Source of the DNA: Escherichia coli
GTDB taxonomy: Bacteria; Pseudomonadota; Gammaproteobacteria; Enterobacterales; Enterobacteriaceae
Direction: 5' to 3' (one strand)
Assembly: GCF_003334765.1 (NCBI RefSeq)
Contig: NZ_QOWT01000131.1
DNA length: 350 nucleotides
Positions 1 through 348 of the stretch are shown piece after piece; within the stretch, counting starts at the first letter, position 1, and every line of letters starts with the position of its first letter. The notes below the pieces were generated by a model. It saw only the letters and a list, made by a program, of their open reading frames with translations, was not told where the DNA came from and did no database searches. Both the position numbers and the translations under genes were made by a program.

Positions 1-348
1 CGGGAATGGCTGATTCTGAACATGGCGGGACTGGAGCGTGAAGAATTCCGGGTGCTGTATCTGAATAACCAGAATCAGCTGATTGCCGGTGAAACCCTCT
101 TCACCGGCACCATCAACCGCACGGAAGTCCATCCCCGGGAGGTGATTAAACGCGCCCTGCACCACAATGCCGCTGCCGTGGTGCTGGCACACAATCACCC
201 GTCCGGTGAAGTCACACCCAGCAAGGCAGACCGCCTTATCACGGAACGTCTGGTACAGGCACTGGGCCTGGTGGATATCCGGGTACCGGACCATCTGATA
301 GTCGGTGGCAGCCAGGTTTTCTCCTTTGCGGAACACGGTCTGCTTTAA
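1..348 (+). CDS. yeeS: RadC-like JAB/MPN+ (JAMM) domain protein, UPF0758 family (YeeS/YkfG/YfjY-like); 5'-partial, C-terminal ~115 codons plus stop
   Basis: Seen in sequence: frame +1 has no stop from nt 1 to the TAA at 346..348 (nt 1..21 read R-E-W-L-I-L-N before the first Met at 22). The translation contains the JAMM signature [14 protein letters not shown] and a C-terminal ...[24 protein letters not shown] typical of RadC-like proteins. CTG-rich codon usage fits Enterobacteriaceae. Established knowledge: the H-x-H-x7-S-x2-D motif defines the JAB/MPN+ metalloenzyme fold. The symbol yeeS is from recalled similarity to the E. coli cryptic-prophage paralogs; I cannot separate yeeS from ykfG or yfjY without an alignment, so read the symbol as family-level. 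Confidence 0.88.
85..108. repeat. Perfect 9-bp inverted repeat (gccggtgaa / ttcaccggc) with a 6-nt spacer (accctc); potential stem-loop within the coding region
   Basis: Read directly: 85..93 gccggtgaa; 100..108 ttcaccggc is its exact reverse complement. It lies in frame over codons A-G-E-T-L-F-T-G. Its existence is certain; any function is unknown. Confidence 0.5.
190..231 (+). other. JAMM/MPN+ metal-binding motif H-x-H-x(7)-S-x(2)-D (predicted Zn2+ ligands His57, His59, Asp70, numbered from the Met at nt 22)
   Basis: Codons 190..192 CAC (H), 196..198 CAC (H), 220..222 AGC (S), 229..231 GAC (D), giving [14 protein letters not shown]. Spacing matches the canonical JAMM signature exactly. Candidate upstream glutamates (E35 or E40 in RTEVHPRE) could supply the catalytic Glu, but which one cannot be decided without a structural alignment. 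Confidence 0.85.

Follow-up and report, generated by a model that had tools for sequence, protein, structure and literature searches.

The closest described relatives of the gene analysed here are proteins of Escherichia coli K-12: YeeS (b2002), annotated in the CP4-44 cryptic prophage as a 'RadC-like JAB domain-containing protein', YkfG of CP4-6 and YfjY of CP4-57. In the RefSeq annotation of K-12, yfjX and yfjY are now called lfgA and lfgB, the latter a 'CP4-57 prophage protease', following Fernandez-Garcia et al. 2024 (PMC10846083). According to that paper, deletion of lfgB causes sensitivity to H2O2, acid and heat, a phenotype that was complemented, and MqsA binds upstream of lfgA; purified LfgB degraded the antitoxin MqsA in vitro during an overnight incubation, and alpha-casein too. 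Its authors remark that LfgB was barely soluble and that contaminating proteases were not strictly excluded, and in the text consulted we found no catalytic-site mutant control for the proteolysis. The paper also cites a mutator phenotype of multicopy yfjY (Yang et al. 2004). Protease activity is reported for LfgB only, with the caveats just given, and not for YeeS, and the LfgB paper was the sole biochemical study of RadC that we found in the literature. Iyer et al., from the Aravind group, describe RadC as a JAB clade without a ubiquitin-tail groove (PMC3239186, PMC5512222), and a 2025 review names only metalloproteases as structural neighbours of RadC and calls its function open (PMC11981726).

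We analysed a 350-nt stretch of E. coli DNA, here called the window. Frame 1 of its plus strand has no stop from base 1 until a TAA at 346–348 and is truncated by the 5' edge, the missing 5' 129 nt lying outside. At the 100%-identical locus of E. coli D8 the gene starts 129 nt upstream and its product has 158 aa; the window therefore encodes residues 44–158, approximately the 3' two thirds of the gene, with the entire JAB domain. Its features are as follows.

1..345, plus strand: partial coding sequence, codons 44–158 of a 158-aa yeeS-type RadC-like JAB protein (translation, Pfam RadC)
40..42, plus strand: codon of E57, the water-activating catalytic glutamate of the JAMM motif (invariant column; aligned to the conserved Glu of 2qlc)
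136..138, plus strand: codon of R89, a RadC-specific invariant residue of the PRE motif (invariance among homologues)
190..231, plus strand: HxHx7Sx2D segment with H107, H109, S117 and D120 (direct reading, invariant columns)
190..192, plus strand: codon of H107, zinc ligand
196..198, plus strand: codon of H109, zinc ligand
220..222, plus strand: codon of S117
229..231, plus strand: codon of D120, zinc ligand
289..294, plus strand: codons of D140 and H141, the pair of invariant, RadC-specific residues of the LDH motif, lying outside canonical JAMM (invariance)
346..348, plus strand: TAA stop codon, equal to the annotated gene end in locus L001 (12348)

The 115 residues match Pfam RadC (PF04002) at E=3.4e-44 (150 bits, model positions 11–121 of 121) and, with E=1.8e-25, the Chlorobium RadC homologue whose crystal structure is 2qlc. 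They are 100% identical to WP_001186181.1 of E. coli D8, annotated as 'JAB domain-containing protein', and chromosomal genes 100% identical to the window occur in 12 complete E. coli genomes. The window almost certainly holds a yeeS-type RadC-like JAB gene, one that is already known and annotated in E. coli and named in K-12. No RNA family was matched within the window or close to it when the locus was scanned against Rfam with a permissive threshold. Antisense ORFs in the window do not exceed 39 aa, and their apparent conservation upon ORF clustering merely mirrors the sense gene; the only repeats are inverted repeats of 10–11 nt, a size expected by chance.

Read directly from the sequence, the JAMM motif E...HxHx7Sx2D is complete, within HNHPSG...PS..D. 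The original prediction had numbered the residues H57/H59/D70, counting from an internal Met at nt 22 rather than from the real start; the correct numbers are H107/H109/D120, equivalent to H97/H99/D110 in the 148-aa YeeS annotation of K-12. E57, H107, H109, S117 and D120 are invariant in an alignment of 48 diverse homologues, and so are R89, D140 and H141; all eight are at least 95% conserved both in core RadC and in short RadC forms. The true substrate may become apparent from R89, D140 and H141.

The window's protein passes the NCBIfam model TIGR00608 (radc subfamily; 149.1 bits, cutoff 133.85) but fails the core RadC/YicR equivalog PRK00024 (161 bits, cutoff 180), with an alignment confined to profile positions 88–211 of 212, that is, to the C-terminal 124 positions. 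The helix-hairpin-helix (HhH) N-terminus is absent from the 158-aa protein, core RadC having a total of ~224 aa; where core RadC/YicR (UPF0758) carries the HhH module, there is a short helical segment at the N-terminus of the window's protein, and the ELLAILLRTG-type N-terminal motif of core-type loci is not found in it. It has the fold of a solved RadC homologue. Both the assignment to the C-terminal JAB domain of a RadC-like protein and the assignment to the island type rather than to core radC, as originally predicted, thus stand.

In the wider family, 40,763 clusters at 50% identity match the query (E<=0.001), and a scan taking one genome per species gave 80 RadC loci. Long, HhH-bearing core RadC accounts for 62 of them (53 by N-terminal motif scan, and 9 by manual assignment on sequence and neighbourhood), the other 18 being short forms. 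The core loci adjoin coaBC, dut, rpmB (L28), rpmG (L33), or ispH and slpA; the housekeeping neighbours coaBC, dut, rpmB and rpmG are absent at window-type loci. A common set of 19 positions reaches 95% conservation or more in the core and short groups alike, no alignment position separates the two, and the JAB domain of the window's protein is ~50% identical to each. Because the conserved positions are shared, the island protein is best described as the catalytic domain of core-type RadC without its DNA-binding HhH module, and judged by these residues its chemistry is very probably the same as that of core RadC. Two betaproteobacterial variants of 189–208 aa (L027 7812–8438, L059 7851–8420) carry a 'DLELLGKLLGV'-like N-terminal motif; the motif looks like a shorter version of the HhH N-terminus of core RadC, and these variants may stand between the core and the short form.

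Among K-12 proteins, the window's protein is 98.6% identical to YeeS (over 148 residues), 82.3% to YkfG and 72.4% to YfjY, and the catalytic residues of YfjY/LfgB and YkfG are identical to its own. The loci compare as follows. In three loci 100% identical to the window (D8, SCU-301 and VTB96959v) the order is Ag43, (DUF905), DUF932, antirestriction, JAB, DUF987 (yeeT-like), CbeA, CbtA, so that the expected yeeT/cbeA/cbtA-like genes downstream and antirestriction and Ag43 genes upstream were seen in all three. The D8 and VTB96959v arrays go on with DUF5983, DUF957 and DUF4942; beyond these come an IS110 remnant and the kps capsule cluster. Pseudogenes (DUF5983, IS110, AAA ATPase fragments) are common among the neighbours. 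CP4-6 and CP4-57 of K-12 share the order antirestriction, JAB, DUF987, antitoxin, toxin. The yeeS locus of CP4-44 likewise has yeeT, cbeA and cbtA downstream and Ag43 (flu) upstream, and yeeS is close to the window's gene (dS 0.11, dN 0.006), but yeeR there takes the place of the upstream DUF932 and antirestriction genes, both of which the window-type locus retains, and the window-type locus, unlike yeeS, adjoins the kps cluster. The 1.5-kb yeeR overlaps the start of yeeS (L004 6780–8755), which is why YeeS is annotated with 148 aa, 10 codons shorter than 158. The window's gene belongs to an integrative island of the CP4-44/CP4-6/CP4-57 type. Profile match and mobile-island neighbours alike place it inside the RadC-like JAB family and away from a core radC locus. 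Across the island block that runs from the GTPase gene to cbtA (L001 6001–13500), G+C is 55–57%, above the flanks, and it falls to 40% at the IS110 remnant/kps junction (15001–16500).

Only 15 nt separate the end of the antirestriction gene from the JAB start. Strong terminator-like hairpins lie 3' of Ag43 and of DUF957, and none was found in the DUF932–DUF957 interval. This spacing and hairpin layout fits the lfgABCDE operon reported for CP4-57, and the JAB gene is probably co-transcribed with the ArdB/KlcA-like antirestriction gene upstream and with DUF987 and the CbeA/CbtA type IV pair downstream. In SCU-301 the cbeA-like antitoxin gene is interrupted by a stop codon and the cbtA-like toxin gene is cut short (L095 5801–6336); the JAB, antirestriction and DUF987 genes beside them are intact, so retention of the JAB gene is independent of the toxin-antitoxin pair. 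PADLOC matched neither the JAB protein nor the genes directly beside it to a defence system; a distant YeeP-like GTPase gave only a weak match to LeoA/LeoBC-type models. Many singleton database proteins (e.g. P0022, P0023, P0040, P0071) join the JAB domain to antirestriction (PF03230), DUF987 (PF06174), YeeU (PF06154), DUF932 or GTPase sequences; they match at 96–99% identity and most likely reflect frameshifts or misassembly across adjacent genes rather than real fusions.

The gene is widespread within the species. Of 5426 complete E. coli genomes, 4797 (~88%) contain the window sequence, with a median of 3 and a maximum of 13 copies, nearly all chromosomal; in 4358 of the 5426, the five genes between and including antirestriction and cbtA form a contiguous block. 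Paralogue pairs have diverged to dS 1.1–1.6 (saturated) with dN of only 0.12–0.20, giving dN/dS of 0.05–0.13: the gene is under strong purifying selection. The earlier proposal that the intact motif implies an active enzyme is supported by residue invariance and by these dN/dS values.

Beyond the chromosome, 2319 plasmid records (1648 typed as conjugative) and only 34 phage records carry RadC-like JAB homologues; carriage on plasmids is therefore as originally described, and carriage by phages is rare. The pOXA-48 (IncL) homologue WP_004187369.1 is 53% identical to the window's protein. Its array, like the chromosomal island, also includes antirestriction and DUF4942 genes, but the JAB gene is paired with DUF3085, ssb is in the array, and DUF987 and CbeA/CbtA are missing. 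In L002 (pOXA-48 type, 8433–9366) DUF3085 lies directly upstream of the JAB gene in a co-directional array, and an HTH regulator and a split, IS1-interrupted DGQHR-domain gene lie downstream. A DUF3085–RadC pairing on broad-host-range plasmids was noted in a 2026 paper (PMC12826799); the leading-region paper of Samuel & Burstein mentions RadC marginally, in a supplementary table only. The pOXA-48 array is oriented toward the mobA/relaxase genes ~10 kb off and lies across the oriT region from the relaxase, a position that corresponds to the standard definition of the leading region. From this gene layout we infer a link of the RadC-like JAB to establishment after transfer. A 550-kb Klebsiella replicon carries WYL, DUF932, antirestriction, RadC, YeeU and CbtA genes (53% identity), and given this array and that of pOXA-48, the antirestriction association extends beyond E. 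coli.

The contexts of short RadC elsewhere were mobile-element-like among the short forms examined, 12 of the 18 short-form loci. A CP4-type block surrounds short RadC in E. albertii and Enterobacter. Outside Enterobacteriaceae, a seed search for CP4-module proteins near short RadC found DUF4942 alone, at one locus; the exact CP4 module is therefore enterobacterial. An integrase is directly adjacent in L022, L073 and L091, and further neighbours are a transposase and DUF4942 (L027), a RecE-like exonuclease, a DUF932-like protein and a RusA-like protein (L059), and a helicase/primase (L073). In Vibrio the conserved partners differ from the enterobacterial set: short RadC is followed by two tandem paralogues of ~147 aa (phrog_13741; L038 8423–9346, and L060 and L066 8366–9302), with a gene of 246–272 aa, from one shared cluster, close by. 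In L091 (1560–4722) short RadC is followed by three consecutive paralogous ORFs of one cluster, the first matching tyrosine integrase families, which suggests an element of the recombinase-trio type. Three diverse representatives gave anecdotal contexts: adjacent to an integrase, in an array with DUF5906, and solitary among metabolic genes. On three metagenome contigs (L010–L012, 5001–5447; P0193) a 148-aa short RadC sits among a GntR regulator, a lactonase, a CitMHS transporter and an aconitase, with no mobile-element genes within 5 kb.

What might the protein do? In structure comparison it scored 9.4 against PfJAMM1, 8.8 against BRCC36, 8.7 against Rpn11, 8.5 against CSN5, 7.9 against Cap3, 7.7 against AMSH, 6.7 against BilC and 6.3 against BubCD; its fold neighbours are peptidases without exception. 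We regard a Zn-dependent JAMM metallopeptidase as the best reading of the protein, with peptide-bond hydrolysis as the most probable chemistry, at somewhat better than an even chance. The stand-alone 158-aa RadC-like JAB/MPN+ domain, its JAMM catalytic set being complete, would act as a Zn-dependent hydrolase and be expressed together with the antirestriction gene of the island, in a module common to the leading regions of conjugative plasmids. We infer further that its substrates, one or a few, would be DNA-associated or regulatory proteins of host or element, and that cleavage would follow activation of the module at entry or under stress; the reported action of LfgB on the HTH antitoxin MqsA would, if so, be one example. 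The identity, motif, fold class, synteny, ubiquity and purifying selection behind this reading come from the present analysis, and the paralogue's protease activity from the literature, where it is weak.

Several observations stand against peptidase activity. The sole biochemistry, on LfgB, involved an overnight incubation, a poorly soluble protein and possible contaminating proteases. The original prediction had called the function uncharacterised and the substrate unknown; this no longer holds for the 72%-identical paralogue LfgB, given the MqsA and alpha-casein report of 2024 (PMC10846083), and since the LfgB evidence is weak the substrate question is only partly closed. The gene mqsA is present in 2299 of the 5426 E. 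coli genomes as against 4797 for the yeeS-type gene, so at least half of the yeeS-type carriers lack it, and MqsA is therefore not a general target. The upstream region of K-12 lfgA shows no similarity to the region 5' of the antirestriction gene in L001, where both reported MqsA-site motifs are absent; the region with the MqsA sites has no counterpart at the window-type locus. MqsA cleavage, if real, is a special case of K-12 CP4-57 and not the function of the RadC family. Iyer et al. deny a ubiquitin-tail groove and propose nucleic-acid processing instead (PMC3239186, PMC5512222), and the invariant R89, D140 and H141 are not explained by a JAMM peptidase model.

This last proposal forms the main rival, possible but on present evidence rather unlikely: a nuclease or other nucleic-acid- or nucleotide-processing enzyme, acting for instance on ssDNA ends or intermediates of the element during establishment. 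RadC JAB domains are fused to HhH, ArdC-N, DnaG-type primase and DinG/Rad3 helicase domains, and in such fusions the Aravind group infers that the JAB stands in for a 3'-5' exonuclease (PMC3239186, PMC5512222). The JAB domain is ~50% identical to that of HhH-bearing core RadC, with every conserved residue common to both; the neighbours at other loci include the RecE-like exonuclease, the RusA-like protein, the helicase/primase, ssb and antirestriction genes; and the mutator phenotype of multicopy yfjY, as cited in PMC10846083, points the same way. R89 and the D140–H141 pair could bind phosphate or a second metal.

A bolder form of the metallopeptidase reading, which we consider doubtful, is that the stand-alone RadC-like JABs from islands and plasmid leading regions form a protease class of their own, for establishment or anti-defence, clearing particular DNA-bound host proteins (repressors, antitoxins, defence sensors and the like) upon entry or induction; MqsA would then be an incidental target, and R89, D140 and H141 would serve DNA- or nucleotide-dependent activation. 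Still less probable is a counter-defence deconjugase, an isopeptidase stripping ubiquitin-like or Cap2/Bil/Bub-type immune conjugates and so shielding the element on entry. Identity to the JAMM/MPN+ isopeptidases (PfJAMM1, Rpn11, BRCC36, CSN5, AMSH, Cap3, BilC) is only 8–19%, similarity to the Ubl-type enzymes is no stronger than to any other JAMM enzyme, and RadC differs from them in its own invariant R89, D140 and H141. The missing ubiquitin-tail groove (Ins-1 region) described by Iyer et al. (PMC3239186, PMC5512222) speaks against it as well. No Ubl, E1/E2 or CD-NTase partner gene was present in any neighbourhood examined, PADLOC gave no match, and core chromosomal RadC has the same active site in a housekeeping context (coaBC, dut, rpmB, rpmG). 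A reading of the gene as the functionless remnant of a decayed prophage, kept only through its linkage to the toxin-antitoxin pair, would suit islands termed cryptic prophages and the adjacent DUF5983, IS110 and AAA ATPase pseudogenes, but is highly improbable: selection data contradict it (dN/dS 0.05–0.13 between paralogues at dS >1), every catalytic residue is invariant, SCU-301 keeps an intact JAB gene despite pseudogene cbeA/cbtA, and the yfjY deletion phenotypes of K-12 were complemented (PMC10846083).

The window itself is routine annotation and adds nothing new on the RadC question. Among bacterial protein families whose biochemical activity is not settled, RadC ranks with the largest, and its mobile-element form accompanies antirestriction genes on pOXA-48 and other major resistance plasmids. 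For this family the analysis sharpens three points: the island and core forms have one active site, the fold neighbours are all peptidases, and MqsA is not a general substrate.
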